A DNA stretch of 64,000 nt from an uncultured Gammaproteobacteria bacterium (GCA_964592195.1 CAZQEI010000005.1:5689-69688); one strand, 5' to 3'; counted from the stretch's first letter, positions 5,122 through 55,956 are shown. The notes: generated by a model not told the origin, from the sequence alone. A program made the numbers and translations.

Positions 5122-5212
5122 TGTATTGTATATTATGAAATCTACTTCCTGCTTTTCCGCCTGAGGCGGATCCGCCTTTGGCGGAGGAATTTTGGATTTG
5201 AAATTTGGAATT

Positions 5213-6904
5213 TTAATTTTTATCATTTAACTCATTCTCATGAACAAACATAAAATTTTCGAGATCGAATAATCGTTTGTAAAGTTTATCATCTTGGCGA
5301 TAAGTCACCCAAGCGAATGACTTTGATGCTGGTGTGATGGAAACAAAGGCATCAGAGACTAAAATGCAAGGCGCTATCACTTGCTCACGCCCTTGTTCAT
5401 CAAACATGATCCAATCATCACCATCCTTCAACCTTTTTGTGACAAAAATTACCTTATCACCCACAGGAATCGATTTTATCCCATTTCCAGTGGAAACATC
5501 AAGAATTGTCTTTATAACACCTCTATCAGGACTAAAAATTGTAGTGTAGCGACTATCCGCCCCATGTTTGGATGAATAGTACAACTTATTTTGTGAATTA
5601 TGAATCACGGCACAATCTGACAACTCTTCATTAAAAAACTTTTTAGTTATCCTTTCCCCTTTTGCATTAAATACTTGCGTTCCAAAATTTTCATAATAAC
5701 CAATCACATACACCTCCTCGCCTTGAACAACCAATGAACTAGGTGTAGAGCAACCAGATTGCAAAAAATTCATATCCAAGTTACCATTAACCGCCAGGCA
5801 GGTACTAGCGGAGACTCTTAAAGAATGAGTAGAATAAACATGCTGACTATTTTCAACTATATTAACAACCCGACCATCAACATTATTTTTAATAACCTTA
5901 CCGCTTGAATTGAGTATGTATGCTTGAGAAATATTATTTACAGGCCAACTGCCTACCAAAAAGAATCCTTGGCCCTCATTATTCACTCTCACTGCGGGAT
6001 TTGAAATATAACCTTCCAGCGGTTCGCCGGTGGGTGTCGAGCCAAGGTACCCAGGCGTATTTTTCTTGCCCCAAATTTCACCTTTGTGATCACATATATA
6101 AAAATGTTGATCCTTGTCCTTCAATGCCATAAAAACTTTATCCCCGACTGGTTGCAAATGTCCAGTAATAATATATTCATCGGGCAAATCAAGAATACCA
6201 TCACGCTCAGAATACAGGCACCACTTATTATTTTTGATAACTAAGAACATATACTGACCTTGAAATCGAATAACTGTTTGCACGTCAATTCTAGAAAATT
6301 CTCCCTTGAATCTTTTACCATCCATCGTTACCAAGGAATAAAAGCCATCCATTTCTTTCTCTTGCCAAACTGCAAAATCTCCGGACATCAAATTTTGATA
6401 ATTCGCAGTTTCATTGACAGAAACATTAGGATTGATAACTTCGTTTTTTTCATTCACAAACCTATTCGGATTAAACCCTCCATCATTCTTGTCCCCTACA
6501 AAAATCACTTGACTTCCCACTTCACCTATTTCTGTGAAAGTGACAAAACCTTTACCTCCGGAAATATCTTCATTCGATTCATTAAAAACATGAACCATAC
6601 CATCCTTGTCATCGCAGGTAAAAAACAAGTGGCCATCAAAAACATAAATATTACTTTTATCCAAATTTGCAATTTGATTTATTTCATCAGTCTCAAATAA
6701 ATGAACAATCACATCATTTAAAATTTCCGACTTTTCAATCTGATTGGAATAGGCTGCCACTAAAGACAACAAAGTCTTCACTCTTCGCGGATCACGAGTA
6801 TCACCCTCCTTTACCACTTCACGCAGGCGTTCGTTTAAATCAACCAAGCTCACCGATTGATCGTGAGTAATATTGCCAGTTAGTTTTTGTTCAAATGGTG
6901 ACAT
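5213..6904 (-). CDS. N-module family protein F2 (563 aa, beta-propeller-like C-terminus)
   Basis: Starts MSPFEQKLTGNITHDQSVSLVDLNERLREVVKEGDTRDPRRV. The C-terminal region is rich in beta-strand repeats. Confidence 0.6.
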   Translation of the reverse strand: MSPFEQKLTGNITHDQSVSLVDLNERLREVVKEGDTRDPRRVKTLLSLVAAYSNQIEKSEILNDVIVHLFETDEINQIANLDKSNIYVFDGHLFFTCDDKDGMVHVFNESNEDISGGKGFVTFTEIGEVGSQVIFVGDKNDGGFNPNRFVNEKNEVINPNVSVNETANYQNLMSGDFAVWQEKEMDGFYSLVTMDGKRFKGEFSRIDVQTVIRFQGQYMFLVIKNNKWCLYSERDGILDLPDEYIITGHLQPVGDKVFMALKDKDQHFYICDHKGEIWGKKNTPGYLGSTPTGEPLEGYISNPAVRVNNEGQGFFLVGSWPVNNISQAYILNSSGKVIKNNVDGRVVNIVENSQHVYSTHSLRVSASTCLAVNGNLDMNFLQSGCSTPSSLVVQGEEVYVIGYYENFGTQVFNAKGERITKKFFNEELSDCAVIHNSQNKLYYSSKHGADSRYTTIFSPDRGVIKTILDVSTGNGIKSIPVGDKVIFVTKRLKDGDDWIMFDEQGREQVIAPCILVSDAFVSITPASKSFAWVTYRQDDKLYKRLFDLENFMFVHENELNDKN

Positions 6905-7021
6905 TCTGTTAGATTTAAGATTAGAGTTTATAGATTGTAGATATTATGGGTGATGGTAATTGGGATAAGGATGCCAGAAAATAATATTCGTGGATTCCCC
7001 GCGTGGCGGGGCAGGCGTGGT

Positions 7022-8260
7022 CTAATTCGAGAGATCTTCCTCCGACACTGGTTCCATAATATCAACTGTCACGCAAATCGCTTGACCATCTTTAACTCCA
7101 TAAACCTTGCATATATTATCTTTTATTGGTTTCACAAAACTAATCGCATCGAATATGCCAACTCGAATGCAAGCCTCACCTTCATGGTTAACCAATCGCA
7201 ACCCATCGGAAGCATAGTCAGCAATCACAAACCCATCACCGACCTTCGTTAGTTCTTTACCATTTTCAATAATAATAAGTGGTTCTGCTGAGTCTGATGC
7301 CATCACTGTGTTCCTGGGGAAATCATTGTCAGCAACATATAAAGCCTTCCCTTCCCAAATTATGGAATTCCCAACCATATTTAAAATACGATCATCCAAA
7401 AATTTTTGATTTTTTCCTCTAATTTGTTTTATTCCGTAATGTTTATTGAACTCATCACGGTATTTAACATATAAACCATCCTCACCATCAGTAAATATTT
7501 CATTAACATTAAGACAACTAAACAATTCTTCCACTTATACCCCATCAATAAGCAAAAAATGTGTCTTATCACGCGATCCGACACAGACAATTTGATTATG
7601 ATAAAAACAAAAACTTGTAAAATATGAATAATTACTGGCCCATTCCTGTTCCTGTCCGTCAATCATCAAGGATGCAACAACTGTTTCTTTATTTCGTTTA
7701 TAGCCATCATCAGTAAAGATTATTTCGTGGCCACCAACATTCTTAACTGAAACACCTGAAAAGTTTTTATACCTGAGATCTTCTCCATTTTTTCTAATAA
7801 TCACAATATCCTCATGAAAGTCATTATGAAATCTCGATGGATGACTGCCCCTTTTACCTGTGGCAACAAATGAATCTCCAACTGATACTAAGTTGTTCAC
7901 TTCCCGTAAATTTTCAGACAAAACCTTACCTTTATTATCGACAATGATAAAATCCGAAGCTCTCCTCCCGATGATCACCGCACCACCAGCAATCGGCACA
8001 ACCTTCATAATTTGGTAAATGCCTAAATTTTCAAAATTAAAAACATCAAAGAGAACCTTCTTGCCTAATTTAATCTCATCCAAATCATCTTCAAATTCTT
8101 TTGAATATTTCTCCACCAATTGCAATAAAGCAGCAACGTTCTTTGGATCACGCGGATTTTTCACTTTTGCAGCTTCGTGCAAGCGTTCGTTAATATCAAC
8201 CAAACTCACCGCTTGATCGTGAGTAATATTGCCAGTTAATTTTTGTTCAAATGGTGACAT
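7022..8260 (-). pseudogene. N-module family member F3, interrupted by an in-frame TAA (7535-7537)
   Basis: ORFs 7535-8260 (N-module MSPFEQKLTGNITHDQAVSLVDINERLHEAAKVKNPRDPKNV) and 7022-7534 are in the same frame, separated by a single TAA. Together they are colinear with the intact paralog at 8387-9616 (both C-termini end ...ICKV.G..D..QAICVT...SEEDL). Confidence 0.55.
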
Positions 8261-8386
8261 TCTGTTAAATTAGAGATTATAGATTTTATGTGATAATTAA
8301 ATCTTATTCGTGGATTCGTGGGAAATTCGTGGATTCCCCGCGTGACGGGGCAGGCGTGGGACATTTATGGATTTGCGGTCAATATA

Positions 8387-9616
8387 TTATAGATCTTCCG
8401 CTGAAACAGTTGTCATCGTATTTATAGTCACACAAATCGCTTGATTATTTTTATCAATTCCACAAACTTTGCAAATATTACCTTTAACAGGAAGAATGTC
8501 AGTAATTCTAACAAAATCAGATGGTTCTATACATGATACTCCTAAATAATTATAAACAGTTACACCATCGCCGGAAAGATCCCTACCAATCACGAGAAAA
8601 TCTTCATTAAAAGGAATAATGCCAAGCGATTCCTTGACTGTAAACAAGGGATTATTTTTATCTTTGGTCAAAGTAATATCGAGATAGCCTTGACCTGCAG
8701 TTGAGGATGTTTTCATGAATACCATCTGACCATAATTACCAGAGTATACAACTTGGTTGTTCACAATCCTAGTTAATTCAACCTCTTTGGAATCGTCATT
8801 TGTTTGAATTTCTTTAACCAATGTTACAGTTGTAATCCGCTTATCCGTGTAACAAACAAATAATTCATCCTTGGCATTTGAAATTAAATTAGTCACAGAG
8901 TCACAATCAGGTAACTCTTCCTCTTCCTTACCATCTAAAACAAGCCACCATTTACCATCACGATAACCAGCGCATGCGATGCCTTTGCAATAAGAACAAA
9001 ATGCTTTAACCTTTATATACTTTTTTGCCCACTCTTGATTTATTCCATTAATAATAACTTTAGCGGGTAAGTTCGTTTGATTTATTTTATGATAGGCGTA
9101 GACAATTTCACAATTATCAACAATCGCAATATTTGCATATCTATAACCGATTAACGATTCGTCTTCTCCCTGTGGTCGAACCACATTTATACTACCACCA
9201 CGATGAACAAGCGCGACAAAAGAATCTGTACCAATCCTATGAGGTCTGACATAAACATGATCAAAATTATCAGAATATTTTTTCCCATCAGTATCTAACA
9301 AAATTTTACCGGACTGATCATCACCATAAATCAAGATCTTCCTGCCAAAAAGTAAAACTGACTGGATATATTTTAATCCATATCTTTGAATAATATCCGA
9401 GTTGAAAAGTATTTTTTTCCCTAATTTTGTCCCATATAATTCATCCTCAAATTCCATGGAATATTGCTCCACCAATTGCAACAATGTGGCAACGTTTTTC
9501 GGGTCACGCGGGTTTTTACCTTTTGCGACTTCACGCAAGCGTTCGTTAATATCAACCAAACTCGCCGCTTGATCGTGAGTAACATCGCCAGTTAATTTTT
9601 GTTCAAAAAGAGACAT
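8387..9616 (-). CDS. N-module family protein F4 (beta-propeller-like C-terminus)
   Basis: The homologous start MSLFEQKLTGDVTHDQAASLVDINERLREVAKGKNPRDPKNV is at ATG 9614-9616. The ORF track start at 9640 adds 8 codons. Confidence 0.6.
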   Translation of the reverse strand: MSLFEQKLTGDVTHDQAASLVDINERLREVAKGKNPRDPKNVATLLQLVEQYSMEFEDELYGTKLGKKILFNSDIIQRYGLKYIQSVLLFGRKILIYGDDQSGKILLDTDGKKYSDNFDHVYVRPHRIGTDSFVALVHRGGSINVVRPQGEDESLIGYRYANIAIVDNCEIVYAYHKINQTNLPAKVIINGINQEWAKKYIKVKAFCSYCKGIACAGYRDGKWWLVLDGKEEEELPDCDSVTNLISNAKDELFVCYTDKRITTVTLVKEIQTNDDSKEVELTRIVNNQVVYSGNYGQMVFMKTSSTAGQGYLDITLTKDKNNPLFTVKESLGIIPFNEDFLVIGRDLSGDGVTVYNYLGVSCIEPSDFVRITDILPVKGNICKVCGIDKNNQAICVTINTMTTVSAEDL

Positions 9617-9775
9617 AAGACTAATTAAAGAATAATACAAGGCTACAGATGCTACCGATATTTTCTACCGATACTACTGATTTAAAAATTAGTTCCCTGT
9701 ATTGGAATTTTCCGCCGGTCATCGACTCCGAGGTAAATGTATGTTTCGTCGCTCAGACTCGAGGAGAGGCGGATC

Positions 9776-9795
9776 CCTGCCTACCGGCAGGCAGG
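9776..9795. repeat. REP-like palindrome, near-perfect copy (cctgcctaccggcaggcagg) embedded in ggcggatcc...ttggcggag hairpin context
   Basis: One mismatch relative to the 20-bp perfect palindrome seen at 14298, 24445, 29132 and 45045. Confidence 0.55.
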
Positions 9796-9828
9796 CGCCT
9801 TTGGCGGAGATTATTGGTGCTTGGTTAT

Positions 9829-11406
9829 TTAAACTAACGGTTGCCCCGTAATATATTTCGGTATCTCCACATTCATTATTTTCAACGCCGTAGCCGTCAC
9901 ATCTGACAACAATCCAACTGGTCGCAATAAACTTAAATCATTACCAATCAATTGTGATTCTGGTGAACTCTTGCCTTGATATTTTTCACCGACGATAATT
10001 AACGGCACTGGATTAGTGGAATGGTCTTTACTGATTTCGCCAGTTTGCAAATTGCGCAATTCTTCGCAGTTACCATGGTCAGAAGTTATAATACAATTAC
10101 CACCTTTGGAAAGAACTAAATCAACTAATTGCCCTAAACAATAGTCTACGGTTTCTACTGCTTTAATACAGGCGGGAATATCACCGGTATGACCAACCAT
10201 GTCAGGATTGGCGTAGTTAACTACAATAAAATCATGTTTTTCTTGCATTAAGGCTTTGTTCAACTTGGAAGTAACTTCCAACGCTGACATCTCCGGTTTA
10301 TCCGCGTAACTAGCTACGCGCGGAGAAGGGATAACATCGCGATCTTCAGCTTTGAAGGCCGCTTCTGCGCCACCATTGAAAAAGAAAGTTACATGCGCGT
10401 ATTTTTCTGTTTCCGCAATGTGATATTGACTCAAACCAACATCACTAACTATTTTGGATAAACAAGTAGAAACCTTTTCCTTGTGCATAGCCACTTCCAC
10501 CGGTAACCCTTCTTCATATTCAGTCATGGTAATCATCTTGATATTGTTAACTTTCTTGCGGTTAAAGCTATCAAATTCATCCAAAACCAAGGCTTTAGTT
10601 AATTGTCGCGCACGATCAGAACGATAGTTCATAAAAATTACCGCATCGCCATCTTCAATAGTGGCCACTGGTTTTCCACCTTCGGTAATAACAACAGGTA
10701 CAAACTCTTCATCAAAAACTTTTTTTGAATATGAGGCTTCTACGGCAGTCACGGCATCGTCAAAAGTTTCATCGCTCGTGCCTTCCACCATGGCTTTGTA
10801 AGTTTTTTCCACACGTTCCCAATGATTATCACGATCCATGGCATAAAATCGACCGGAAACAGTAGCAATTTTCCCTATACCAATCTCTGCTATTTTCTTT
10901 TTCAACGAAGTCATGTATTCTTTACCACCATTAAAAATCGTATCACGACCATCAATAAAGCAATGCAAGAAGACATCCTTAATTTTTTGTTGTTTGGCAA
11001 ATTCCAGCAAAGCATAAGCATGTTCAATAGTGGAGTGCACTTTGCCATCGCTCATCAAACCAATAATATGCAAGCGTGATTTATTTTGGCGCACATGTTC
11101 AGCGGCTGACAAAAACTTTTCATTTTCAAAAAATGCGCCATCATTAATATCTCTATCAATTAATGGTAAATTTTGAAACAAAACTTTACCCACACCCAAA
11201 TTGGTGTGTCCAACTTCAGAATTTCCAATCTCCCCCCAAGACAAACCGACTGATTCACCAGAGGCCAATAAAGTATAAACTGGGTAATTGGAAGCATACT
11301 TATCAAAATTCGGTTTTTTCGCCAGCGAAATACTATTACTATCACAGGGTGGCGCGATCCCAAAGCCATCCAAAACAATTAACACTAAAGGTTTGCGTTG
11401 AGACAT
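9829..11406 (-). CDS. gpmI: 2,3-bisphosphoglycerate-independent phosphoglycerate mutase, paralog 2
   Basis: 525 aa. N-terminal LVLIVLDGFGIAPP...LAKKPNFD and overall colinearity with the adjacent iPGM. Confidence 0.85.
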   Translation of the reverse strand: MSQRKPLVLIVLDGFGIAPPCDSNSISLAKKPNFDKYASNYPVYTLLASGESVGLSWGEIGNSEVGHTNLGVGKVLFQNLPLIDRDINDGAFFENEKFLSAAEHVRQNKSRLHIIGLMSDGKVHSTIEHAYALLEFAKQQKIKDVFLHCFIDGRDTIFNGGKEYMTSLKKKIAEIGIGKIATVSGRFYAMDRDNHWERVEKTYKAMVEGTSDETFDDAVTAVEASYSKKVFDEEFVPVVITEGGKPVATIEDGDAVIFMNYRSDRARQLTKALVLDEFDSFNRKKVNNIKMITMTEYEEGLPVEVAMHKEKVSTCLSKIVSDVGLSQYHIAETEKYAHVTFFFNGGAEAAFKAEDRDVIPSPRVASYADKPEMSALEVTSKLNKALMQEKHDFIVVNYANPDMVGHTGDIPACIKAVETVDYCLGQLVDLVLSKGGNCIITSDHGNCEELRNLQTGEISKDHSTNPVPLIIVGEKYQGKSSPESQLIGNDLSLLRPVGLLSDVTATALKIMNVEIPKYITGQPLV

Positions 11407-15959: not shown

Positions 15960-16214
15960 TTATTCTCCTTTTATTGATATTAATTTCCAATTGTTACCAG
16001 AGACTTCTTTGATAGTCACTTCCGCCTTTTCCGCCACCGTTCCTCTGGCTAACATGCCGATATTGAACTGTAAATTTTCCGGGTTAATAGCCGCACCATG
16101 TTCAATCACCGTTCCCAGCTCTAAATTTATTTGACTAACTTGGCTAAATTTATTGGTTTTTGAGGTCTCAATTACCACTTTTAATACCAAATCAGCCACA
16201 TGCAAATCGTGCAT
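15960..16214 (-). CDS. HypA-like hydrogenase nickel-incorporation protein lacking the C-terminal zinc finger
   Basis: MHDLHVADLVLKVVIETS...INLELGTV...LQFNIGMLARGTVAEKAEVTIKEV follows the HypA MHE...IG.LS.V....L.F.F...GT.AEGA.L.I pattern but has no Cys. The likely start is ATG 16212-16214; the track ORF extends to 16259. Confidence 0.45.
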   Translation of the reverse strand: MHDLHVADLVLKVVIETSKTNKFSQVSQINLELGTVIEHGAAINPENLQFNIGMLARGTVAEKAEVTIKEVSGNNWKLISIKGE

Positions 16215-16312
16215 ATTTTTTATCTTTATTATTACCCCTATTATACCAAAATTAAACAAAAAAGGTAAGCAGAATTGCTCACAGTGGAAAGATTATATAG
16301 TTGACAAGAAAA

Positions 16313-16908
16313 ACAGGAGAAACGAGGGAGACAAGAGAGAAAAGGGATGGAATTTATCTTTTAAGAGTCAATGATTACAAGTGGGAAACGAGAGTGAAAA
16401 GCTACGGGATTTATTTTTCTAGTTTCTTCCTTAAACCTTCAATGGTTCGAATAATTAAATATTCAGTTACCCCCATTAATTTATCTAATTCTTTATATTC
16501 GTCCGCAGTAATTAAACCATCGTCAAAGCAATCATCAACGTCGCCCTTTAATTCATTGAGAGAGCCTCTGCTTATGGACAGGTAACTTAAATAACTTTTG
16601 GTACTTTTAAAATACCCCTCCTGCATATTCTGCTTAACAGATCTTGCAGCGTCCCGCATCTGTGAAATTCTGCGATATTCTGCTTGCGGAAATTTTTTTG
16701 TTAATTGATAAATTTTAATTCTAATATCTTTGGCCTTTTGCCATATAATCAATTTTTTGTAACCGTAGTTAGAACTATCTACTTCCTCCATATTTTAAAT
16801 GAATATTTCATTCACACATATTCCTCTATACTCTCGTCCTTTATATTTTTTACAAATAACTTCCTTCCCCCGTCTCCCTCGTCACTCTTATTTCTCCTGT
16901 CTCTCCCC
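16313..16908. mobile_element. Inverted-repeat-flanked cassette carrying a four-helix-bundle (23S rRNA intervening-sequence-type) protein gene
   Basis: Left arm acaggagaaacgagggagacaagagagaaaaggg (about 16313-16346). Right arm reverse complement ggggagagacaggagaaataagagtgacgagggagacgg (about 16862-16905). They share caggagaaa...gagggagac. Confidence 0.45.
16411..16791 (-). CDS. four-helix-bundle protein (TIGR02436-like, 23S rRNA IVS protein family)
   Basis: 126 aa. KKLIIWQKAKDIRIKIYQLTKKFP...EYRRISQMRDAARSV..N..EG is typical of this family. Confidence 0.65.
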   Translation of the reverse strand: MEEVDSSNYGYKKLIIWQKAKDIRIKIYQLTKKFPQAEYRRISQMRDAARSVKQNMQEGYFKSTKSYLSYLSISRGSLNELKGDVDDCFDDGLITADEYKELDKLMGVTEYLIIRTIEGLRKKLEK

Positions 16909-18180
16909 TTAGTGGGTAGCACAGCTGATACACGGATCATACGCGCGAACTAAAGTTTTCAACAACAATTTCTGTTTTTCAACTGGGAACTTCTGAATTT
17001 GTGGTAAAAACGCGCCCAAATCATTTTCCAGATTGGCAAGGAACATCGCAGTTGGTGTTATTATATTCGAATTAATAACTATTCCCTGATTATTCAATTC
17101 ATAATAATGGATCAAAATCCCACGCGGCGCTTCCACCACACCCACACCTTTACCTGCTTGTGGCTTAAAATCAACGAAAAGTTTCTTATTTTTCAATTTT
17201 AAATATTTTGGTAACAACTTTTCCAATTCTTCAAAAGCATGGATAATTTCCACTGCTTGAGCCAACGTGTTAAAAAAGGAATTGTAACAAGGTTGACTAG
17301 CTTTGAACGATTTCCAAATCTTTTTAGCCAAAGGATTAAGTTTATCACCATTCAAATTAACCCGCGCCAAGGAACCAACCATAAATGGTTGTTCAAAATA
17401 TTTCACCCGTTTCACACCTTCGCCCTGAAAACAGTATTCTTCAAAATATTTTAAATACTCCAGGGGATCATTGACTTTTTGTTTATCCCCAACATTAATC
17501 ACGCCATCATAATGCGCATATTCACTTTTGCTTTTCATTCCAGCATACAATGTTTGATTGGAAAACTTCGGTGGTTTGGCTTTACTTTTTACAAATTCAA
17601 CAATCTTGATCGCCATTTTTTTAGCATCTTGAATCTCCGCATGCAAAGCCTGTAATTTTTCTTCATCTGGCACCACTTTAAAACCACCAACTACGCTATT
17701 AATCGGATGCGTGGCTCGTCCACCAATAACATCGCACAAACGCAAAGCCCAATCACGCATGACTAACGCGGAAGTGGATTGTTTAGTATATTTTTTAACT
17801 AGATCAAAGTCATTATTCACGCCGACAAAATCTGGAAACGATAAAAAGTAAACATGTAATGCATGGCTATGAATCCATTGCGCCAAGTTAAAAATTTTAC
17901 GCAACAAAACAATCTCGGCCGTTGGTTCAACATTCATGGCCATTTCCAAAGCTTTAATTGCCGCTAAATTATGCACAATCGGACACACACCGCAAATTCT
18001 GGCAGTAATAATTGGCACATCGTAATAAGATCGATTCAAAACAATCCCCTCCATTAACCGCGCTCCTTCAAGAGTTAAAATTCTGGCGCTAGCCATATCA
18101 GCTTGTTGCAAAGTCGCTTCCAGACCCAAGTGCCCTTCTGTTTTGCCTATGTGATTGATGGTAATAGTTTTTTGTGACAT
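16909..18180 (-). CDS. hydA: [NiFe] hydrogenase large (alpha) subunit, group 3b/sulfhydrogenase-like
   Basis: N-terminal RICGVCPIVH and C-terminal DPCISCATH nickel-binding motifs. Confidence 0.9.
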   Translation of the reverse strand: MSQKTITINHIGKTEGHLGLEATLQQADMASARILTLEGARLMEGIVLNRSYYDVPIITARICGVCPIVHNLAAIKALEMAMNVEPTAEIVLLRKIFNLAQWIHSHALHVYFLSFPDFVGVNNDFDLVKKYTKQSTSALVMRDWALRLCDVIGGRATHPINSVVGGFKVVPDEEKLQALHAEIQDAKKMAIKIVEFVKSKAKPPKFSNQTLYAGMKSKSEYAHYDGVINVGDKQKVNDPLEYLKYFEEYCFQGEGVKRVKYFEQPFMVGSLARVNLNGDKLNPLAKKIWKSFKASQPCYNSFFNTLAQAVEIIHAFEELEKLLPKYLKLKNKKLFVDFKPQAGKGVGVVEAPRGILIHYYELNNQGIVINSNIITPTAMFLANLENDLGAFLPQIQKFPVEKQKLLLKTLVRAYDPCISCATH

Positions 18181-18189
18181 ATTTTATTT

Positions 18190-19182
18190 TTATTCTTTTA
18201 AAAATGCTATTGTAATGCGAAAACCGGTTGTCTGGCTCGGGGTGTAAACATTTTCATTGGTTGTAGTATATAGACTTCCTGCACCTCCATTTTCACTACC
18301 ACCTACTAATATTCGCATATTTGATTTATAACCATCGTGACTAACAACAAAAGTTCCTGATAATTCTGAAGTTTTAACTTGACTTAATCCAGGGAATTCT
18401 TCATTCAATCTACGATTAACAAGTGCCGGAGTCAAAATAACTTCAAAATTTGGCAAACTCAACCCTTCTTCATTCCATTTTTTTTGAATTATATTTTTTA
18501 ATTTTGGAAAAGTATTCGAAATTAACCACATACCCACCCTATTAAAGCGAAGATTTGAACCACCACCTATCATTTTAGCTATTGGATCTAGGTTTTCAAT
18601 ACTCCCAGAATATGAGCCATAGTGTTCCCCCATAACCTCGCCCTCAAGACTGTTTGGTCTTATTATGGTTTCTGTTACCAATAAAGAATATTTTTCTGCT
18701 ACTTCTTTAGCATCCTTAATTAATGACCGCTCCATAACTTCTGACATGATTGAACCTGGCTGATGAACTAAACTATACACACCAGGACTTCTTTGCCATA
18801 AATGTGATCTAAAATTTACCAATGTTTTGTCTTTATCTGGCAAAGCATTCCACTGGCTTTCAGTAATTTCGGGGAACAAAGATAAAAATTTCTCATGATT
18901 CATATCACCATCTTCAGCCGGATCAGTAATAAATGGTTCAAATTGTCCAAAAATTAATTCTTTTATGGCGTCAATATGTTCACTATATTTTTCCGCTGGG
19001 GTAATAGTCTCAACCGTTCCGGCATACTCTTCCACCAATCGCAAAGCTTCCGCCACTTGATCGGGTTTGGGAATTTTTTGGTTCTTTATTTCAACCGCCA
19101 AATCTCGTAACTTTTCATTTACTGAAACAACTGTGGCACCTTGTTCTGGCTTTAAATTTTGAGTTAATCGTTCACCTATCAT
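18190..19182 (-). CDS. N-module family protein F5 (type-B C-terminal domain) inserted between the hydrogenase small and large subunit genes
   Basis: The likely start MIGERLTQNL..VNEKLRDLAVEIKNQKIPKPDQVAEALRLVEEYAG is at ATG 19180-19182. It shares IDAIKELIFGQFEPF, VILTPALVNRRLNEEFPGLSQV, ENGGAGS and the C-terminal GFRITIAFLKE with the 54998-58367 array. Confidence 0.6.
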   Translation of the reverse strand: MIGERLTQNLKPEQGATVVSVNEKLRDLAVEIKNQKIPKPDQVAEALRLVEEYAGTVETITPAEKYSEHIDAIKELIFGQFEPFITDPAEDGDMNHEKFLSLFPEITESQWNALPDKDKTLVNFRSHLWQRSPGVYSLVHQPGSIMSEVMERSLIKDAKEVAEKYSLLVTETIIRPNSLEGEVMGEHYGSYSGSIENLDPIAKMIGGGSNLRFNRVGMWLISNTFPKLKNIIQKKWNEEGLSLPNFEVILTPALVNRRLNEEFPGLSQVKTSELSGTFVVSHDGYKSNMRILVGGSENGGAGSLYTTTNENVYTPSQTTGFRITIAFLKE

Positions 19183-19183
19183 T

Positions 19184-19948
19184 TTATTGTTTTTTAACAG
19201 GAGACATAAATTCTTTAATACCAAACACTTTCAATACGTCATTTATCTGCGATTGAGTAAAACCTTTTTCTTTTAATAAATTCAACCAGTTTTCAATGGC
19301 CGGCGCGCGTAGCAAACCGCGACACCCCCAACACGCCTGTCCATTAGTTGGACAAATAGCGTCGCAACCGCCTTGAACAATTGGACCAAGACAAATCTCT
19401 CCAGCTTGTAACAAACATTTGTTTCCTTTTTTCAAACATTCATAACAAACAGGATTTTGTTTAATGGTTGGACGTTTACCGGCGACAAGACTGTAAATGA
19501 ATTGTAAAATTTCTTTTTTAATTACCGGACATGTTGGCAAAGAAAAATCTACTTTGACATACTCGGAAATCGGCTTCACCTCAGGATTATCTAAATTTTG
19601 ATCTTCATCATAAACCTTGGCCATCAACCGAGATTTATCACTATAATTTTTCATATGGTAAATACCACCGATATGCGCGCAAGATCCACACGCCACTAAG
19701 ATCTTGGCTTGCCAACGATATTGTTTCAATAAACGAATATTGTGTTTGGTAATCGGACTACCTTCTACAAACACCACATCCACTTTTTGCGTACCTCGAA
19801 ATTCTTCATCTTCAAACAACCGAAAATCTACAATATCTATTTTATCTTTTAATGCCACAAATTTTTCTCTCAATCCTAATAATTCAAAATAACAACCTTC
19901 GCAACTGGTCAATGAAACAAAGGCAAATTTAAGCTTTTTGTGCGCCAT
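19184..19948 (-). CDS. hydD: [NiFe] hydrogenase small (delta) subunit
   Basis: FVSLTSCEGCYFELL and VACGSCAHIGG cysteine motifs of hydrogenase small subunits. Confidence 0.85.
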   Translation of the reverse strand: MAHKKLKFAFVSLTSCEGCYFELLGLREKFVALKDKIDIVDFRLFEDEEFRGTQKVDVVFVEGSPITKHNIRLLKQYRWQAKILVACGSCAHIGGIYHMKNYSDKSRLMAKVYDEDQNLDNPEVKPISEYVKVDFSLPTCPVIKKEILQFIYSLVAGKRPTIKQNPVCYECLKKGNKCLLQAGEICLGPIVQGGCDAICPTNGQACWGCRGLLRAPAIENWLNLLKEKGFTQSQINDVLKVFGIKEFMSPVKKQ

Positions 19949-20420
19949 ATTTTAATAATTCACTTTGTAATTCTTGTGGTCTGTTAGTTTTCACAAAACA
20001 TAAGATTCCTTCATAATCAAAGGTAATCCCTGAACCGTTCATTTTATAATAACTATTTTTGGCTGGATAGATATGCCCATATTTCTTCAATTCTTCGCGA
20101 GAGATAAAGGCGACAGTGCGCAGTTGAGTAATCTCATTAATATCAAATTTATTTGGAAGAAAACCGAACTTAACCATAAACCTGCCATTATTCAATTCAA
20201 CTGAATAATTACTTATAATTAAAATAAAAGTGCTAAGCATTAGAGTCATGATAAATCCTAAAAATACTTTCTCCCCCGAGGATGTAGGATCAGCAGCAAA
20301 AAATTCAACCCCACCAATCTTAATTCCAGTGTCAAAAATCAAACTATACATGAAGACACCCCAGATAATCAAAGGTAAAATGTGATTATAAATTTTTAAC
20401 CAATAGACATCTTTAAACAT
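19929..20420 (-). CDS. membrane protein, possible bacterial PH-domain (bPH_2/DUF304-like)
   Basis: Two N-terminal TM helices plus a C-terminal globular part ending ..LLKYGAQKA. It is a paralog of the next gene. Confidence 0.35.
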   Translation of the reverse strand: MFKDVYWLKIYNHILPLIIWGVFMYSLIFDTGIKIGGVEFFAADPTSSGEKVFLGFIMTLMLSTFILIISNYSVELNNGRFMVKFGFLPNKFDINEITQLRTVAFISREELKKYGHIYPAKNSYYKMNGSGITFDYEGILCFVKTNRPQELQSELLKYGAQKA

Positions 20421-20423
20421 ATT

Positions 20424-20885
20424 TTATTTTTTTGCGCCGTATTGAATTAAATAGGTATACAACTTCTCCGCTTCGTTAACTGTCACAAAATATTTACGCT
20501 TTTGGTTTAAGATTTCAAAGCTCAAACCACGTCGAGCACCAGCAATAAATCCCATAGTTTTATTTCTCCCCATGCGCAGACCATATCCACCAAAATCCAT
20601 AAAATGATAGTCCTTCAATTCCAAATTGAAAATATCTTTGATCACAAATTTCTTTTTGAACAAACCGAAACTGACTTCTAAAGTATAATTTACTATTTCA
20701 ATTTTCAACACACTGAAATTCAAGAACACAAACAAAATAAAAGCATCTATCCCTGCCACGATCCAAAGATCACCGATTAATTCTGAACTTTTAGAAAATA
20801 TCATCACCAAACTTCCAATTAGAATGACTAAAGTAATGACAATGAAAATTTTAGGGATTGATTGATATTCTTTAAATACTTGCAT
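20424..20885 (-). CDS. membrane protein, paralog of 19929-20420
   Basis: The same 2-TM plus C-terminal domain layout, ending ..LIQYGAKK. Confidence 0.35.
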   Translation of the reverse strand: MQVFKEYQSIPKIFIVITLVILIGSLVMIFSKSSELIGDLWIVAGIDAFILFVFLNFSVLKIEIVNYTLEVSFGLFKKKFVIKDIFNLELKDYHFMDFGGYGLRMGRNKTMGFIAGARRGLSFEILNQKRKYFVTVNEAEKLYTYLIQYGAKK

Positions 20886-20896
20886 ATATATTATTT

Positions 20897-21036
20897 CGAG
20901 ATTGCCACGCCCCGATGCGGGGCTCGCAAATTAGGTTACTCTTTTGCGAGGAGTGAAACGACGAAGCAATCTCTATGGAAATTAAACCTCTTTTGCGAGG
21001 ATCCCCGATTAAATCGGGGAGACGAAGCAATCTCTA
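20897..21036. repeat. Composite intergenic repeat family R1, copy b (two inverted core modules)
   Basis: gagattgccacgccccgatgcggggctcgcaaa ... tttgcgaggatccccgattaaatcggggagacgaagcaatctct. Confidence 0.6.
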
Positions 21037-21040
21037 AAAG

Positions 21041-21340
21041 TTACAAATCATCATAAAGATCTCGAAATTCCGGATTCATACTTTTATTTAGTGCTATTTT
21101 TTTCGCCCTTGAACCAGCCTTAATTTGCCTTTCTCTATTTAAAGCTTCATAAGCACTATCACAAATCTCGAAGTAAACTAATTTATTTATATTATATCTT
21201 GCCGTAAACGAATTCGGATCAACCTTATTCTTGTGTTGCCAAACTCTTCCGACTAAATCATTTGAAAAACCTGTATATAAAACTGTATTTATATTATTTG
21301 TCATTATATACACATAGAATTGTTCAGGCCTATCATACAT
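21041..21340 (-). CDS. GIY-YIG nuclease family protein
   Basis: FYVYIMTNNINTVLYTGFSNDLVGRVWQHKNK fits the GIY-x10-YIG signature. The gene sits inside the hydrogenase operon. Confidence 0.8.
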   Translation of the reverse strand: MYDRPEQFYVYIMTNNINTVLYTGFSNDLVGRVWQHKNKVDPNSFTARYNINKLVYFEICDSAYEALNRERQIKAGSRAKKIALNKSMNPEFRDLYDDL

Positions 21341-21349
21341 ACTTGCCGA

Positions 21350-22165
21350 CTAAACATCTATGTATTCTTTGGGCAAGCCTCTTAAAAACTCCACTGAATA
21401 CACTGGCCCATCTTTACAAACATAACAAGAACCCAGCGCGCAATGTTGACACACACCAACACCGCAATGCATTCTTCTTTCCAGTGACAAATAAATATCT
21501 TTGGGTAAAATGCCTTTTTCTTCCAAAACTTTAACAACAAACTTATACATCGGTTCTGGACCGCAAACATAGACATCAGCGTCTTTTAACAATTCAGTGG
21601 TTTTAATTAAATCAGTCACAAAGCCTTTTTGAGTTGACCAATTAGGAAATTCAGTTTCTTCCAAAATTACATGCATACTAATTTTACTTTTCCAACTTTC
21701 AAGTTCTCTTTCAAAAACAACCGAATCATGATTTCTGCATCCCATAAAAGCTTGAACTTTTATATCTGTTCTTAACATGTTTTCCACCAACACTGAACGT
21801 AACGGAATAAAGCCGCAACCACCGCCAACGATAATTAAGTTGCGTTTAACCTCGGGAAAACCGTTACCAAATGGACCGCGAATATATAAATAATCACCAA
21901 CTTCTAATTCGTTAATCTTCTCAGTTAACTCACCTGCCGTGCGAATACTGACATCAAAATATTCTCGACTGTCATGCCGATTGGAGGCCAAAGTAAAAGG
22001 AGCATCACCAAATCCGGGTAATCCGATCATTAGAAATTGCCCGGCGGCAAACTGAAATTCTTTTTGAACTTTTGTTTCAAATTGCAATCGAAAAGTATTG
22101 ATCAAACTATTTTCCTTAATCTTCTGTATGATTTTCGCCCGGATGGGCAAGAGTGGATTTTTCAT
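21350..22165 (-). CDS. hydG: hydrogenase gamma subunit (FAD/NAD(P)-binding with C-terminal 2Fe-2S), sulfhydrogenase/AsrB-like
   Basis: Ferredoxin-reductase-type fold (GGGCGFIPLRS) and a C-terminal CGVGVCQHCALGSCYVCKDG cluster motif. Confidence 0.8.
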   Translation of the reverse strand: MKNPLLPIRAKIIQKIKENSLINTFRLQFETKVQKEFQFAAGQFLMIGLPGFGDAPFTLASNRHDSREYFDVSIRTAGELTEKINELEVGDYLYIRGPFGNGFPEVKRNLIIVGGGCGFIPLRSVLVENMLRTDIKVQAFMGCRNHDSVVFERELESWKSKISMHVILEETEFPNWSTQKGFVTDLIKTTELLKDADVYVCGPEPMYKFVVKVLEEKGILPKDIYLSLERRMHCGVGVCQHCALGSCYVCKDGPVYSVEFLRGLPKEYIDV

Positions 22166-23144
22166 CTTGTTTATTTAATGAGGTTAAGACTTGAGCTATG
22201 TTAATTCCCGCCGGACAAACTTTAAAACATCGCATACAGCTGACACAGCCGGCATAGGAAAATTGATCAGGAATACGAACGAATTTATGAAAATACCAAA
22301 AAGCAATTTTCTTTTTCACAGTATCTAAATATTCATGGCCTCCGGCAAGACCGGAAAAATCGTTAAAAAAACAAGAAGACCACTGCCGCACTCGGTTAAT
22401 GGTATCATGTTCAAATTCGTCAACCGTATCAAAACAAAAACAAGTAGGACAAGTCACGGTGCAACGACCGCAGGCAATACACTTGGCGCTGATTTCATCC
22501 CAAATAGCTTTTTGCGCACCATTGTAAACTCGAGAACGAAGATCATCCAGCTTTTTTGAACGGCCAAACTCTGGCACAAAACCAACAAACTCAATATTTT
22601 CATAATCAGTAATATCGTTTTTTTCCAATAATCTTTGTCCATTTTCAGACCCCGAAAAAACAATTAAGTTACCATTTTTTTGGGCTTCAATAAAAACATC
22701 GAAAGCTCGATGTTCTAATATATTTTCCTCAAAATCATGATGAAAAATTTGATAACGTTTATAATCATCTTCAATTCCTTGACTGAAGCCGACAATGTGC
22801 AAGTTTCTTCGTCTTAATAAATAGTATTCATCCTTCGCAAACACCTGTTCAAACAAACCAAAAGCTTCCAAATCCAAGATGTTCATGCCAAAGATAACAG
22901 TCGGTGGAAACTCTTTAGATTCATCAACAAACTGTTCTTTTTTTAATGTGGCTAATACTTCACGGTCAGGTAAAAAAATTGATTTATAAGTATTGGTCGG
23001 AATTTGTCCAGACCAATCAACTTCTTTTGGATCGGTGATTTTTTTAACCACCACATGGTCGTCAACTTTCACCGGTGCGTAAACAATGTATTGAGATAAT
23101 AATTTTGCCAAAAAAAGATTGATTTGCGCTTTTTGCATATACAC
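22116..23144 (-). CDS. hydB: hydrogenase beta subunit (4Fe-4S dicluster), sulfhydrogenase/AsrA-like
   Basis: CIACGRCTVTCPTCFCFD and CVSCMRCFKVCPAG ferredoxin-type motifs. Confidence 0.8.
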   Translation of the reverse strand: MYMQKAQINLFLAKLLSQYIVYAPVKVDDHVVVKKITDPKEVDWSGQIPTNTYKSIFLPDREVLATLKKEQFVDESKEFPPTVIFGMNILDLEAFGLFEQVFAKDEYYLLRRRNLHIVGFSQGIEDDYKRYQIFHHDFEENILEHRAFDVFIEAQKNGNLIVFSGSENGQRLLEKNDITDYENIEFVGFVPEFGRSKKLDDLRSRVYNGAQKAIWDEISAKCIACGRCTVTCPTCFCFDTVDEFEHDTINRVRQWSSCFFNDFSGLAGGHEYLDTVKKKIAFWYFHKFVRIPDQFSYAGCVSCMRCFKVCPAGINIAQVLTSLNKQDEKSTLAHPGENHTED

Positions 23145-23186
23145 TTATTATACAAAATTTTACCAACTGTGTAAAACAAAAATGCC

Positions 23187-24273: not shown

Positions 24274-24399
24274 CTCACGTCGTCACGAATTATTCGTGAC
24301 TCCCGTAGGGGTTTCCACCCCTACGTTACCCCCAGAATATAGGGGGCATACCCCCTATCACCCCCGGTTCGATTCCAAAGCAGTCATATTTAATTATTC

Positions 24400-24444
24400 T
24401 GGAGCGGATAAGGGGAATTGAACCCCTCTCTCAACCTTGGGAAG
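24400..24444 (-). repeat. tRNA-like remnant, copy 2: T-arm (GGGG-TTCAATT-CCCC), acceptor 3' strand and CCA, plus anticodon-loop-like CTTCCCAAGG
   Basis: It shares the 3' 19 nt with copy 1 and the loop CTTCCCAAG with the downstream tRNA-Gly. The D-arm and 5' acceptor region is replaced by the CCTGCCTGCCGGCAGGCAGG palindrome (24445-24464). Confidence 0.45.
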
Positions 24445-24464
24445 CCTGCCTGCCGGCAGGCAGG
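24445..24464. repeat. REP-like 20-bp perfect palindrome CCTGCCTGCCGGCAGGCAGG
   Basis: Exact copy. Confidence 0.7.
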
Positions 24465-24512
24465 GTCGCATAAAATAAATTACATTACATTATTCTAATC
24501 GTACTAAATATC

Positions 24513-24586
24513 TGGAGCGGGGTACGAGAATCGGACTCGCGTCTCTTGCTTGGGAAGCAAGCATACTACCACTGTACTAACCCCGC
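24513..24586 (-). tRNA. tRNA-Gly (anticodon CCC)
   Basis: The minus strand reads GCGGGGT-TA-GTAC-AGTGGTA-GTAT-G-CTTGC-TTCCCAA-GCAAG-AGAC-GCGAG-TCCGATT-CTCGT-ACCCCGC-T-CCA. This gives a 7-bp acceptor, a 5-bp anticodon stem, U33, anticodon CCC, A37 and an encoded CCA. Position 55 is C rather than U, which is unusual. Confidence 0.7.
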
Positions 24587-24695
24587 CTAGTCATTGATCA
24601 TTAGACAAAAAGCAACTGAATTATACCTGATTTAAACCAAAATTGGAAGAGTCACTAAAAATAAAAATCAACCCATTTAGGTTGATTAATTTAAT

Positions 24696-25763
24696 TTATT
24701 CTTTGACAAAATGCATCTTTCTCGTGTCCATATCAACGACCACAGCCATGGGATTCATCAGTTTGGCAAATTCAGGGTACTTATCTTGAATTTTTTCCAC
24801 AGCGAATCTTTGCATAAACAATGCCTTTTCTCGTGCCAACAATGGTTCCACTCCAACAGCATCACGATAAATGGCTGAGCACAAAAGAACAAAATTCTCA
24901 TGAGTAACACGACTGCCTTCCATATTACTTTTAATAATACCAGCCGCTTTTTCAATCGGCTCATCCAGATTTGGACTGAACGGTCCGATGATCAAAGCCA
25001 TGTTCGGCTCATGCAACCAGTCAAAGCCACGACCAACACCAATCACCCATTCTCGATGTTCAGTATCACTCAACGGTCGATTACTCAGTTGCACTTCTTC
25101 AATGTGAGCAATATTACCAACAATCAAAGGCAAGAAATCTTCCAAAATTCTCGACGGCATGTCCGGATACAAACGCTTCAACATCATCCGCAAAGCTTTT
25201 TCGGATTTATCTTCAATTTGAGAAACATCGACAACTTCACCATTTTCACCATTCAAAATTACCGCGTCCAAATCAGTTTCAAAACCAAAGAGCACAGGAT
25301 AGACCACTTGATGTTGACTGCCGAAAACCCGTTCCACTTGTTGCTTCAACTTCCGCGTTTCCGACAATGCCAATTCATAATTATAACCATAACCAGCACA
25401 ACCACGATGAGTATTTCCACGCGAATAGTGATAAGTAACCAAAATCAAACATTTCTTTCCGTTGCTAACCGAATACTTCACCCAATTCATGACATCCAAA
25501 CCAAAGTGCGGCCAACCCATATCAAACTGTCCACCAATGTTGCGCCAAGGTTGAATGATTCCAAGTGGCGTGTTTGTGGCCACGGGAATATGGATTCTGC
25601 CATCCATACATTTAAAAGCCGCGATTTCTGTCGGATGTTTCGCGCGATACAATTCACGTGCCAATCTCGCATCTGGACTGGAAAATTGATCTGAGTGCTT
25701 TTTGTTCAACCTCATCAAATAACGAATCTGTTGTCGACTATTCACGTATCCTCCTTGTCCCAT
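24696..25763 (-). CDS. beta-carbonic-anhydrase-like zinc protein (long form), paralog 1
   Basis: FKCMDGRIH (C-x-D-x-R) and HYSRGNTHRGCAGYGY (H-x-x-C-x-G) resemble the two beta-CA zinc-ligand motifs. The protein is about 355 aa, longer than canonical beta-CA. Confidence 0.4.
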   Translation of the reverse strand: MGQGGYVNSRQQIRYLMRLNKKHSDQFSSPDARLARELYRAKHPTEIAAFKCMDGRIHIPVATNTPLGIIQPWRNIGGQFDMGWPHFGLDVMNWVKYSVSNGKKCLILVTYHYSRGNTHRGCAGYGYNYELALSETRKLKQQVERVFGSQHQVVYPVLFGFETDLDAVILNGENGEVVDVSQIEDKSEKALRMMLKRLYPDMPSRILEDFLPLIVGNIAHIEEVQLSNRPLSDTEHREWVIGVGRGFDWLHEPNMALIIGPFSPNLDEPIEKAAGIIKSNMEGSRVTHENFVLLCSAIYRDAVGVEPLLAREKALFMQRFAVEKIQDKYPEFAKLMNPMAVVVDMDTRKMHFVKE

Positions 25764-25879
25764 TTTAGGGACTTTTGGTTGTCAAAGTAGATGTATATAT
25801 TAACAAATATTATGGTTTTGTCAATCAAGCAAAAACCCCACTTTCGTGGGATTTTCGTGTATAGTTTCATCTTTTGAGA

Positions 25880-26968
25880 TTACTCAGTCACAACCGTCAT
25901 TTTACGCGTCACCATATCAACTGTGACCGCCATCGGATTCATTAAATCAACCAATTCTGGGAATTTAACTTTAATAGTTTCAATCGCAAACCGTTTCATA
26001 AATAAAGCTTTTTCCTTCGCCATCAACGGTTCTGAACCGGCGGCATCGCGATAAATTGCAGAACACAACAATGTAAACGATTGATTACCGGTACGACCAG
26101 CTTCCATGTTACTCTTAATAATACCGGCCGCTTTTTCAATTGGCTCAGCCAAGTTCGGACTAAACGGTCCAATAATTAAAGCTGTATTTGGTTCATGTAA
26201 CCAGTCAAAGCCACGACCAACACCAATCATCCATTCTCTATGTTCCGTATCACTCAACGGTCTATTGCTCATTTTTACTTCTTCAATATGCGCAACATTA
26301 CCAACTATTAAAGGTAAAAAATCAGCTAAAATTCTCAATGACATATCTGGGAATAATCGTCGTAACATGCTACGCAAACCTTCCTCAGTTTTATCTTGAA
26401 CTTCTGACAAATCCACCACTTCTCCATTTTCACCATGTAAAATCACCGCATCCAAGTCAGTTTCAAACCCAAATAATATAGGGTAAACAATTTGATGACT
26501 GGAACCATAAACACGTTCAATCTGTTGTTTCAATTTCTTTGTTTCACTCAAGGCTAACTGAGTATCATAGCAATAACCGGCGCAACCTCGGTGTTCGTGA
26601 CCACGAGAATAATGGTAGGTCGCCAAGATTAAACAATCACGACCATTACTAACGGAATATTTAACCCAGTTATTCACATCCATACCAAAATGAGGCCATC
26701 CCATATCAAACTTGCCACCCAAATTTCTCCAAGGTTGAATAATTCCCAATGGAGTATTTGTCGCAATCGGAATATGAATACGACCATCCATACATTTGAA
26801 CGCCGCAATTTCTGTCGGATGTTGGGCGCGATATTTTTCCCGAGCCAAACGAGCACCAGGACTAGAAAAAATATCTGAATGTTCTTTATTTTTTTTCAAT
26901 AAATATTCAATCTGCTCATCTCGAGTGATTGGATCATTATTTTGATTATTATTTAAATCACTTGTCAT
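25880..26968 (-). CDS. beta-carbonic-anhydrase-like zinc protein (long form), paralog 2
   Basis: A tandem paralog (FKCMDGRIH, HYSRGHEHRGCAGYCY), largely colinear with the gene at 24696. Confidence 0.4.
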   Translation of the reverse strand: MTSDLNNNQNNDPITRDEQIEYLLKKNKEHSDIFSSPGARLAREKYRAQHPTEIAAFKCMDGRIHIPIATNTPLGIIQPWRNLGGKFDMGWPHFGMDVNNWVKYSVSNGRDCLILATYHYSRGHEHRGCAGYCYDTQLALSETKKLKQQIERVYGSSHQIVYPILFGFETDLDAVILHGENGEVVDLSEVQDKTEEGLRSMLRRLFPDMSLRILADFLPLIVGNVAHIEEVKMSNRPLSDTEHREWMIGVGRGFDWLHEPNTALIIGPFSPNLAEPIEKAAGIIKSNMEAGRTGNQSFTLLCSAIYRDAAGSEPLMAKEKALFMKRFAIETIKVKFPELVDLMNPMAVTVDMVTRKMTVVTE

Positions 26969-35435: not shown

Positions 35436-35530
35436 ATATCATGGAACATGGAGCATGGAACATGTAACATTCGAAATGGGACATGATCATGCAACAACGA
35501 AATATTAAATTCTAAATCCTAAATTCTTTT

Positions 35531-35660
35531 TTAAACTTATTCCTCTTCTGCGAGTCCCGCAAAGCGGGACGTGGCAGTCTCGACAAATCACTTGGGCCTT
35601 GGAAATAGTTTTCAAGAGATTGCCGCGTCGTCCCGATTGAATCGTGACTCCTCGCAAAAT
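35531..35660. repeat. Composite intergenic repeat family R1, copy c
   Basis: tcctcttctgcgagtcccgcaaagcgggacgtggcagtctc ... agagattgccgcgtcgtcccgattgaatcgtgactcctcgcaaa. Confidence 0.6.
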
Positions 35661-42453: not shown

Positions 42454-42455
42454 AA

Positions 42456-45750: not shown

Positions 45751-45916
45751 ATGGATGTCTACCCTTCGAGGCTCCTGTTTCACAGGAGGCACCTCAGGGT
45801 GACATTTAAAGTATATTTTAATGTTGTAATTATATCAAATGTATAAAATATAAGCAATTTTCAGCTAATTTTCGTGTTTTTTGATCAATGATCAATGGTC
45901 AATGTTACATGACCAC

Positions 45917-45945: not shown

Positions 45946-45951
45946 GCTTAG

Positions 45952-55951: not shown

Positions 55952-55956
55952 GATAA

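Follow-up and report, generated by a model that had tools for sequence, protein, structure and literature searches.

The 64,000-nucleotide stretch of DNA analysed here (hereafter the window; positions 5689 to 69688 of contig CAZQEI010000005.1, assembly GCA_964592195.1, deposited as an uncultured Gammaproteobacteria bacterium) carries on its minus strand a gene cluster for a [NiFe] hydrogenase of group 3b. It is probable, in our assessment, that this is a typical hyd1-type group 3b cluster of the Patescibacteria (Candidate Phyla Radiation, CPR) in which three junctions have been occupied by lineage-specific passengers, that the gene designated F5 is a passenger read through with the hydrogenase genes, and that the two membrane protein genes, TM1 and TM2, are conserved members of the cluster. 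HydD and HydA would form the hydrogenase dimer, and HydB and HydG the Fe-S and flavin module for NAD(P)H. The first passenger would be a stand-alone GIY-YIG gene with three hairpin units resembling repetitive extragenic palindromic (REP) sequences, placed into an ancestral hydG/TM1 overlap; the second would be F5, between hydD and hydA; and the third a cassette with an intervening-sequence protein (IVP, Avd-like) gene, flanked by inverted repeats, between hydA and hypA. F5 would be one of at least five copies in the window that join a lineage-specific N-terminal module (N-module) to the C-terminal domain (C-domain) of a family of targets of diversity-generating retroelements (DGRs). At a best guess, TM1 and TM2 would serve as a membrane tether or organiser of an enzyme that is otherwise soluble.

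The order on the minus strand was hydB, hydG, the GIY-YIG gene with its repeats, TM1, TM2, hydD, F5, hydA, the IVP cassette and hypA, followed by pgk. The order and positions given in the original prediction for the hydrogenase genes, the GIY-YIG gene, the membrane proteins and F5 were all confirmed, as was the start of F5 1 nt from the hydD stop. The predicted copy of a repeat (R1) was also present, not as a single copy and instead as three short REP-like units. The cluster runs beyond position 16909, into the IVP cassette and then a short hypA. Its features are the following:

23147..23175, minus strand: candidate sigma-70-like promoter, TTTACA-17-TATAAT, 11 of 12, the best match in the scan, directly upstream of hydB.
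22116..23144, minus strand: hydB, Fe-S beta subunit (AsrA-like); Fer4_22 (E = 2e-27), NCBIfam sulfhyd_HydB (6e-37, below the equivalog cut-off), HydB/ShyB and AsrA models.
21350..22165, minus strand: hydG, FAD/NAD(P)-binding gamma subunit (AsrB-like); NAD_binding_1, FAD_binding_6 and DHODB_Fe-S_bind, with sulfhydrogenase gamma and AsrB models.
21041..21340, minus strand: stand-alone GIY-YIG nuclease gene, 99 residues; PF01541 (E = 2.2e-14).
20886..21040, no strand: spacer of 155 bp with three REP-like hairpin repeat units, from repeat comparison within the window.
20424..20885, minus strand: TM1, two transmembrane helices and a probable bacterial PH-like domain; orthologues upstream of hydD and sub-threshold Pfam matches.
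19929..20420, minus strand: TM2, divergent tandem paralogue of TM1, overlapping the hydD start by 20 nt.
19184..19948, minus strand: hydD, [NiFe] hydrogenase small (delta) subunit; Oxidored_q6 (PF01058, 4e-22) and sulfhyd_HydD (2e-49).
18190..19182, minus strand: F5, 330 residues, with the N-module (about residues 1-65) and the C-domain, from profile and paralogue comparison.
16909..18180, minus strand: hydA, [NiFe] large subunit; NiFeSe_Hases (PF00374, E = 3e-39).
16303..16905, minus strand: IVP cassette, with a four-helix-bundle gene at 16411-16791 (PF05635 at 2e-22) and flanking inverted repeats.
About 15960..16214, minus strand: short hypA, about 85 residues, matching the N-terminal part of the HypA profile only.

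The best NCBIfam matches of the four subunits were the subunits of the Pyrococcus sulfhydrogenase, with all scores far below the equivalog cut-offs. HydA contained the motifs RICGVCPIVH (residues 61-70) and DPCISCATH (residues 415-423), invariant in a 28-sequence alignment, and terminated in the second of them at the C-terminal His, without a C-terminal extension. The combination characteristic of group 3b was found, with the Ni-Fe ligand motifs of HydA, a HydD of the Oxidored_q6 type, and an AsrA-like HydB and an AsrB-like HydG alongside. On best-hit similarity, the cluster is probably a typical Patescibacteria hyd1-type group 3b [NiFe] hydrogenase. The CPR enzymes have been placed in a 3b-related clade (PMC7304191). 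In comparison with the group 3b sulfhydrogenase of Pyrococcus furiosus (HydBGDA/ShyBCDA), all four subunit types were present and the large subunit carried CxxC Ni-Fe ligand motifs at both ends; in contrast with that enzyme, the genes are non-contiguous, HydA has no cleavable extension, and the cluster encodes inside it a membrane protein with two transmembrane helices. With the CPR hyd1 clusters described previously (PMC7304191) it shares a small subunit of about 250 residues, the beta and gamma subunits and a Hyp gene nearby, whereas the passengers, namely the GIY-YIG gene with REP units, F5 and the IVP gene, are particular to this genome.

The affiliation of the window is consistent with this assignment. 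Every close HydA relative found by the alignment-based genome scan belonged to a Patescibacteria metagenome-assembled genome (MAG), and the window genes included those for ATP synthase, enolase, phosphoglycerate kinase (PGK), two cofactor-independent phosphoglycerate mutases (iPGM) and a prepilin peptidase, together with many orphan families. On account of this gene content and of those HydA relatives, the window appears to be Patescibacteria-like.

The arrangement of the cluster was compared with that in 80 Patescibacteria loci around HydA homologues (one genome per species), to which contigs of the closest metagenomic relatives were added; loci are designated here by L and a number. The HydA relatives were obtained by the alignment-based genome scan, a single-protein scan with HydA having given no matches. 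Subunits were mapped by phmmer and jackhmmer, and the intervening open reading frames (ORFs) were clustered and their representatives scanned against Pfam. The junction between hydB and hydG was usually tight, the gap being at most 150 bp in 35 of 43 loci. Between hydG and hydD the gap had a median of 2.1 kb and was larger than 300 bp in 43 of 45 loci, and that between hydD and hydA exceeded 300 bp in 46 of 70. The original prediction had regarded the interruption of hydBGDA as a departure from a canonical order; since both junctions are so frequently split, interruption is the rule in this phylum and not an exception. There, the cluster probably forms a loosely arranged series of genes and not a compact operon of four, and the operon of the window would be ordinary for its phylum. 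This agrees with Jaffe et al. 2020, who reported that CPR hyd1 clusters have a variable context in which the small subunit is not always immediately preceded by the beta and gamma subunits (PMC7304191).

The genes occupying the junctions were of three kinds. Some are related to maturation or metal supply (HypC, HypD, HypE, the C-terminal part of HypF, EamA transporters, CbiM and DUF6390), others are unrelated (NUDIX, a PQQ-type sugar dehydrogenase (GSDH), a matrixin-like protease, GNAT, a nitroreductase and YibE/F), and others are small, selfish-looking genes (IVP and PD-(D/E)XK). Among near relatives of the window, the hydD-hydA junction contained EamA in L001, a 375-residue protein in L003, IVP in L010 and NUDIX in L012 (the BLAST cluster of which includes L006), and it was empty in L008, L011 and L015. 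The 375-residue protein of L003 was considered as a counterpart of F5 and was found to be unrelated. Loci L003 and L004 have an identical HydA and unrelated DNA between hydB and hydG (6330-6840 in each), where one has an ORF of 118 residues and the other an IVP/bAvd-like gene; because they share the HydA protein but differ at this junction, the turnover of junctions occurs at strain level and can be very recent. In L007, the hydD-hydA gap of 1.4 kb (8568-10003) contained no ORF of at least 70 residues, no run of N and no Rfam match.

That the interruptions of the window are assembly artefacts is extremely improbable. A MAG contig as the source, and repeats at the GIY-YIG site, would be in keeping with a misassembly; against this, the insertions lie exactly between stop and start codons with the flanking genes intact, the G+C content is uniform across the hydrogenase region at the value of the window (about 0.36), and analogous insertions are present in dozens of independent assemblies.

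The first passenger was recognised at the hydG-TM1 junction. The GIY-YIG catalytic domain matched profile positions 2-76 of the 78 of PF01541, and no GIY-YIG gene was found at this junction in any comparison locus. In L001 and L003, whose HydA proteins are 72% and 63% identical to that of the window, the stop of hydG and the start of the TM1 orthologue share the overlap ATGA, whereas in the window these are separated by about 465 bp filled by the GIY-YIG ORF and the repeat units. Because of the overlap in these relatives, the view of the GIY-YIG gene and the repeat as an insertion is supported, and the gene with its three REP-like units is interpreted as a probable lineage-specific insertion of about 465 bp. 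The units have the form AGAGATTGC..CGTC-hairpin-CCTCGCAAA, two of them being direct and one inverted. At least three further intergenic regions of the window contained related units (near 530-600, 35490-35560 and 47590-47640), and the spacer at 20886-21040 had no match to an Rfam family. A 363-residue ORF at 62819-63910 gave a weak match to Y1_Tnp (IS200/RAYT-like; E = 1e-3, below the cut-off), and this ORF might encode the mobilising enzyme of the scattered intergenic hairpin repeats.

A further insertion was found at the other end of the cluster. The IVP gene (16411-16791) lies between hydA and hypA and is flanked by inverted repeats of 30-57 nt, of which 16303-16332 and 16872-16901 are 80% complementary. 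The intervening sequences of rRNA, which carry the 23S rRNA intervening-sequence protein (Avd-like) gene, are likewise flanked by inverted repeats. IVP genes were located at varying junctions of the cluster in different genomes, and the cassette thus appears to be the third small lineage-specific insertion of the cluster. The small selfish cassettes of CPR genomes (stand-alone GIY-YIG, 23S rRNA IVP/Avd-like and PD-(D/E)XK 'GxxExxY' genes) resemble these elements in being short single-domain ORFs within intergenic junctions, in having hairpin or inverted-repeat flanks, and in a presence or absence that varies between close strains; in contrast, no target-site duplication was identified here. 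With regard to the gene next to the cassette, HypA was short (84-99 residues) in 78 comparison loci and matched only positions 1-70 of the 112-position HypA profile, so that its zinc-binding C-terminal part seems to be missing across the clade.

The second passenger, F5, begins 1 nt after the hydD stop and ends 9 nt before the hydA start. The original prediction had left it between a hitchhiking insertion and a functional association, for example as an accessory or anchor protein of the hydrogenase, and the comparison favours the former. Profiles of the C-domain and of the N-module had no matches among 5,790 ORFs from 84 Patescibacteria hydrogenase loci, and no homologues of HydA, HydB, HydD or HydG were found in 49 metagenomic loci fetched as the neighbourhoods of F5 relatives. 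Orthologues of F5 beside hydrogenases elsewhere, for which a search had been proposed, were therefore not encountered in either set. Given this lack of co-occurrence, and the presence of other genes or none at the hydD-hydA junction of the nearest relatives, F5 is probably a lineage-specific passenger and not a subunit of the hydrogenase. The synteny proposed as a check accordingly indicated lineage-specific insertions in the case of the GIY-YIG gene and F5, and not in that of the membrane proteins.

It is very improbable that F5 is instead a functional accessory, anchor or sensor of the hydrogenase, recruited from an expanded family and translated in stoichiometry with HydD and HydA. Its seamless fit between these two genes, an intact ORF that keeps the conserved residues of its family, and the use of its domain family as a binding module in DGR systems would suit such a role. 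Opposed to it are the null results in both sets of loci, the unrelated or absent genes at the corresponding junction of the nearest relatives, and the existence of four F5 paralogues in a tandem array 36 kb away that has no link with a hydrogenase. As a passenger, F5 would most likely be a binding protein without diversification, its gene being read through together with the hyd genes.

The relationships of F5 were apparent from its two parts. Neither F5 itself nor a model of its fold was informative: no Pfam, NCBIfam or PDB match was obtained for F5, nor any Pfam match for its paralogues or the other N-module proteins; the AlphaFold2 (AF2) model (pLDDT, the predicted local distance difference test score, of 71) had no Foldseek match in the PDB or BFVD; PDB profile searches with the whole F5 family and with the C-terminal 125 residues gave no matches; and a word-indexed homology search returned the query only. 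The four full-length paralogues are arranged in tandem at 54998-59344, with identities of 28-40%. The N-module, of about 65 residues, was present on 11 genes of the window, the C-terminal parts of which are unrelated. These genes are located at 3961-9640, 35681-38104 and 54998-59655; the module is helical, with the motif EKLTANLTPxQA..V.VNE.L..LA…PE.V.EALRLV, and their C-terminal parts could not be annotated. One of the tandem arrays adjoins the prepilin peptidase gene (59652-60461) and a gene at 54475-54993 that is pilin-like by eye, without a Pfam match. The 'MAIGEPKIDLTLS' tandem family at 38704-43361 was also considered as sharing the N-module and was not detected by the N-module hidden Markov model; it consists of five tandem paralogues of about 300-324 residues ('MAIGEPKIDLTLSKGEE…' family), without a Pfam match.

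The C-domain, on the other hand, was found by an exhaustive profile search in about 70 cluster representatives, always C-terminal, with variable N-termini and sometimes fused to an AAA_5 ATPase. Homology to these relatives was supported by phmmer E-values of 1e-9 to 4e-31 (full-length) and by profile E-values down to 5.5e-47. Many loci of the F5 relatives had a short downstream copy of only the last approximately 40 codons, as in a variable repeat (VR) paired with a template repeat (TR). The mismatches between VR and TR fell at template adenines in 14 of 14 cases in L126, 15 of 15 in L112, 12 of 13 in L125, 13 of 14 in L115 and 20 of 21 in L096. Genes for bAvd and an RVT_1 reverse transcriptase (RT) adjoin the template repeat, often with a VWA protein next. 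An RT gene, an Avd gene or both were present in 17 of the 49 loci, and several loci had two or three target paralogues. Owing to these adenine-specific mismatches and to the adjacent bAvd and RT genes of the relatives, the C-domain is assigned, by homology, to the variable-protein domain family of CPR DGR targets. In L088, L109, L113 and L126 the cassette had the order target (VR), TR, bAvd (opposite strand), RT and VWA (CobT_C-like), and the targets fused to AAA_5 suggest a partner system of the MoxR/VWA type for the diversified protein; nothing specific was found in the literature on a CPR DGR target with AAA/VWA partners.

The CPR targets of DGRs were reported by Roux et al. 2021 to lack recognisable domains and transmembrane segments (PMC8144416). 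F5 resembles the Patescibacteria targets (DGR clade 2; PMC8144416) in that its C-domain is homologous to proteins whose last approximately 40 residues are a VR paired with TR, bAvd and RT, and in that it also lacks a recognisable domain or transmembrane segment. It differs from them in its N-terminal module, in the lack of a TR or RT within 64 kb for F5 and its window paralogues, and in the indels of the loop equivalent to the VR.

These differences bear on the possibility that a DGR elsewhere in the genome hypermutates F5 in trans, as an active target, which we consider very improbable. The C-domain family is diversified by DGRs in many relatives, some elements having two or three targets, and no part of the paralogue alignment varies more than the VR-equivalent stretch of F5 (GGAGSLYTTTNENVYTPSQTTGFR), both as would be expected of an active target. 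Contrary to this possibility, the search for a template repeat for F5 or its four paralogues returned only self-matches within the window, and no RT was found there by tblastn with the RT of a relative. The only four-helix-bundle gene of the window matches PF05635, not bAvd, and is not beside any TR. The 9 nt between the F5 stop and hydA are A/T and leave no room for an initiation of mutagenic homing (IMH) site or a hairpin. Furthermore, indels distinguish the paralogues of the window from one another in the VR-equivalent loop, and DGR mutagenesis does not produce indels.

In contrast to the passengers, TM1 and TM2 appear to be genuine conserved members of the operon. The original prediction had included them in the GIY-YIG insertion, which was not borne out: the gene that immediately precedes hydD in L003 and L001 shares 42-49% identity with TM1, whose homologues were found in 17 other distinct loci, in 16 of which hydD is the next gene, with a spacing of -20 to +95 nt. 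TM1 adjoins hydD even in distant clusters (HydA about 45% identical) with EamA and DUF6390 inserted (L050, L056 and L059). Between TM1 and TM2, each with two transmembrane helices, the paralogy is weak (29% identity, E = 9e-5). The 20-nt overlap of TM2 with hydD matches that of TM1 with hydD in L003, and TM2 appears to occupy this ancestral overlap.

In the TM1 family two N-terminal hydrophobic helices come first, then beta strands, six or seven in number, and last a C-terminal helix. No Pfam match above threshold was obtained for the family, and a word-indexed homology search with TM1 returned the query only. Some members had sub-threshold matches to bPH_5 (1.6e-4), bPH_4 (4e-3) and DUF3093 (8e-3), and also to bPH_8. 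The top 30 Foldseek matches of the TM1 model (pLDDT 58) were nearly all pleckstrin homology (PH) domains, with E-values of 0.05 or more, including the bacterial structures 3HSA, 3DCX and 3B77. The distribution of positive charges leads us to infer that the PH-like domain faces the cytoplasm. This layout, in which a predicted beta-sandwich and then a C-terminal helix come after the pair of N-terminal transmembrane helices, would resemble that of the bacterial membrane proteins with PH domains (Pfam bPH_2/4/5, DUF3093; 3HSA, 3DCX, 3B77); TM1 differs from these in reaching no family threshold and in its fixed position inside a hydrogenase cluster.

With regard to its function, our best guess, as a hypothesis, is that TM1 may act as a membrane tether or organiser. 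The broader proposal, that the TM1 family is an unrecognised fifth component that tethers or organises at the membrane the supposedly cytosolic group 3b hydrogenase of one large CPR clade, the TM1/TM2 pair being a duplicated version, is tentative and on balance unlikely. That TM1 and TM2 are conserved neighbours without a role in the hydrogenase, as general membrane proteins linked to hydD by chance, is a realistic possibility which we do not favour. It agrees with the absence of a recognisable redox cofactor motif, with the lack of an above-threshold Pfam annotation and with the many clades of CPR 3b clusters without TM1, which occurred in 17 loci in all and in 16 of the 45 in which hydG and hydD are both present. 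The position immediately upstream of hydD argues against chance, as it is maintained even beside the EamA/DUF6390 insertions, and a position so well kept while HydA identity ranges over 44-72% is usually a sign of function. To our knowledge, a fixed position of a bPH-like membrane protein inside a hydrogenase cluster has not been described, and nothing specific was found in the literature on a link between bPH domains and hydrogenases. The terms 'transmembrane' and 'unknown function' are absent from the main text of PMC7304191, in which no mention of the TM1 family was noticed.

The co-orientation of the genes had been taken as an indication of co-transcription of F5 with the hydrogenase genes. 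It is uninformative in this window, because 62 of its 64 large ORFs are on the minus strand. The spacing of the genes and the absence of convincing internal terminators make co-transcription of the cluster, including F5, likely. The best of the promoter-like sites lies immediately upstream of hydB, and the IVP cassette is followed by a hairpin resembling a terminator.

Several observations count against the overall interpretation of a typical cluster with F5 as a read-through passenger and TM1 and TM2 as conserved members. The scan for promoters and terminators was at chance level overall, with a total of promoter-like sites not above that of the shuffled control, and the site at hydB is suggestive at most. 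With 1 nt before it and 9 nt after it, F5 is spaced no less tightly than true subunits are, which makes a recruited function possible. The DGR search spanned 64 kb of the 81.9-kb contig, and a 'C-type-lectin-like' fold of the F5 C-domain is an assumption taken from DGR biology, with no fold match. The PH assignment of TM1 is derived from sub-threshold Pfam matches and a model of low confidence, and the TM1 counts were taken among the collected hydrogenase loci.

The cluster calls for caution in annotation, as co-orientation and tight spacing do not imply a shared function in CPR genomes, and junctions in a conserved enzyme operon turn over between strains with identical catalytic subunits. It also provides a first functional handle on a dark-matter family, the F5 C-domain being the probable variable, presumably ligand-binding end of CPR DGR targets, of which the window shows non-DGR copies fused to a different N-module and expanded to at least five copies. 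Finally, a conserved, probably PH-like membrane protein upstream of hydD, told apart from the passengers, constitutes a testable and modestly novel lead on the organisation of CPR group 3b hydrogenases.

Other features were observed elsewhere in the window. A GC-rich island at 45800-47600 (0.46-0.58, against a background of 0.36) had no long minus-strand ORF and no Rfam match at the gathering threshold or at E <= 0.1, and might represent foreign DNA or a structured RNA. The region 24279-24695 contained a tRNA-Gly(CCC) at 24513-24586, followed by the partial 3' half of a second tRNA-like sequence (…GGTTCAATTCCCCTTATCCGCTCCA) and several GC-rich hairpins, and may be the remnant of an integration site. 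Next to it, at 24696-26968, there were two tandem paralogues of 355 and 362 residues with about 75-80% DNA identity, which showed a weak match to the catalytic domain of the carboxysome-shell carbonic anhydrase (CsoSCA_cat, E = 7e-6).

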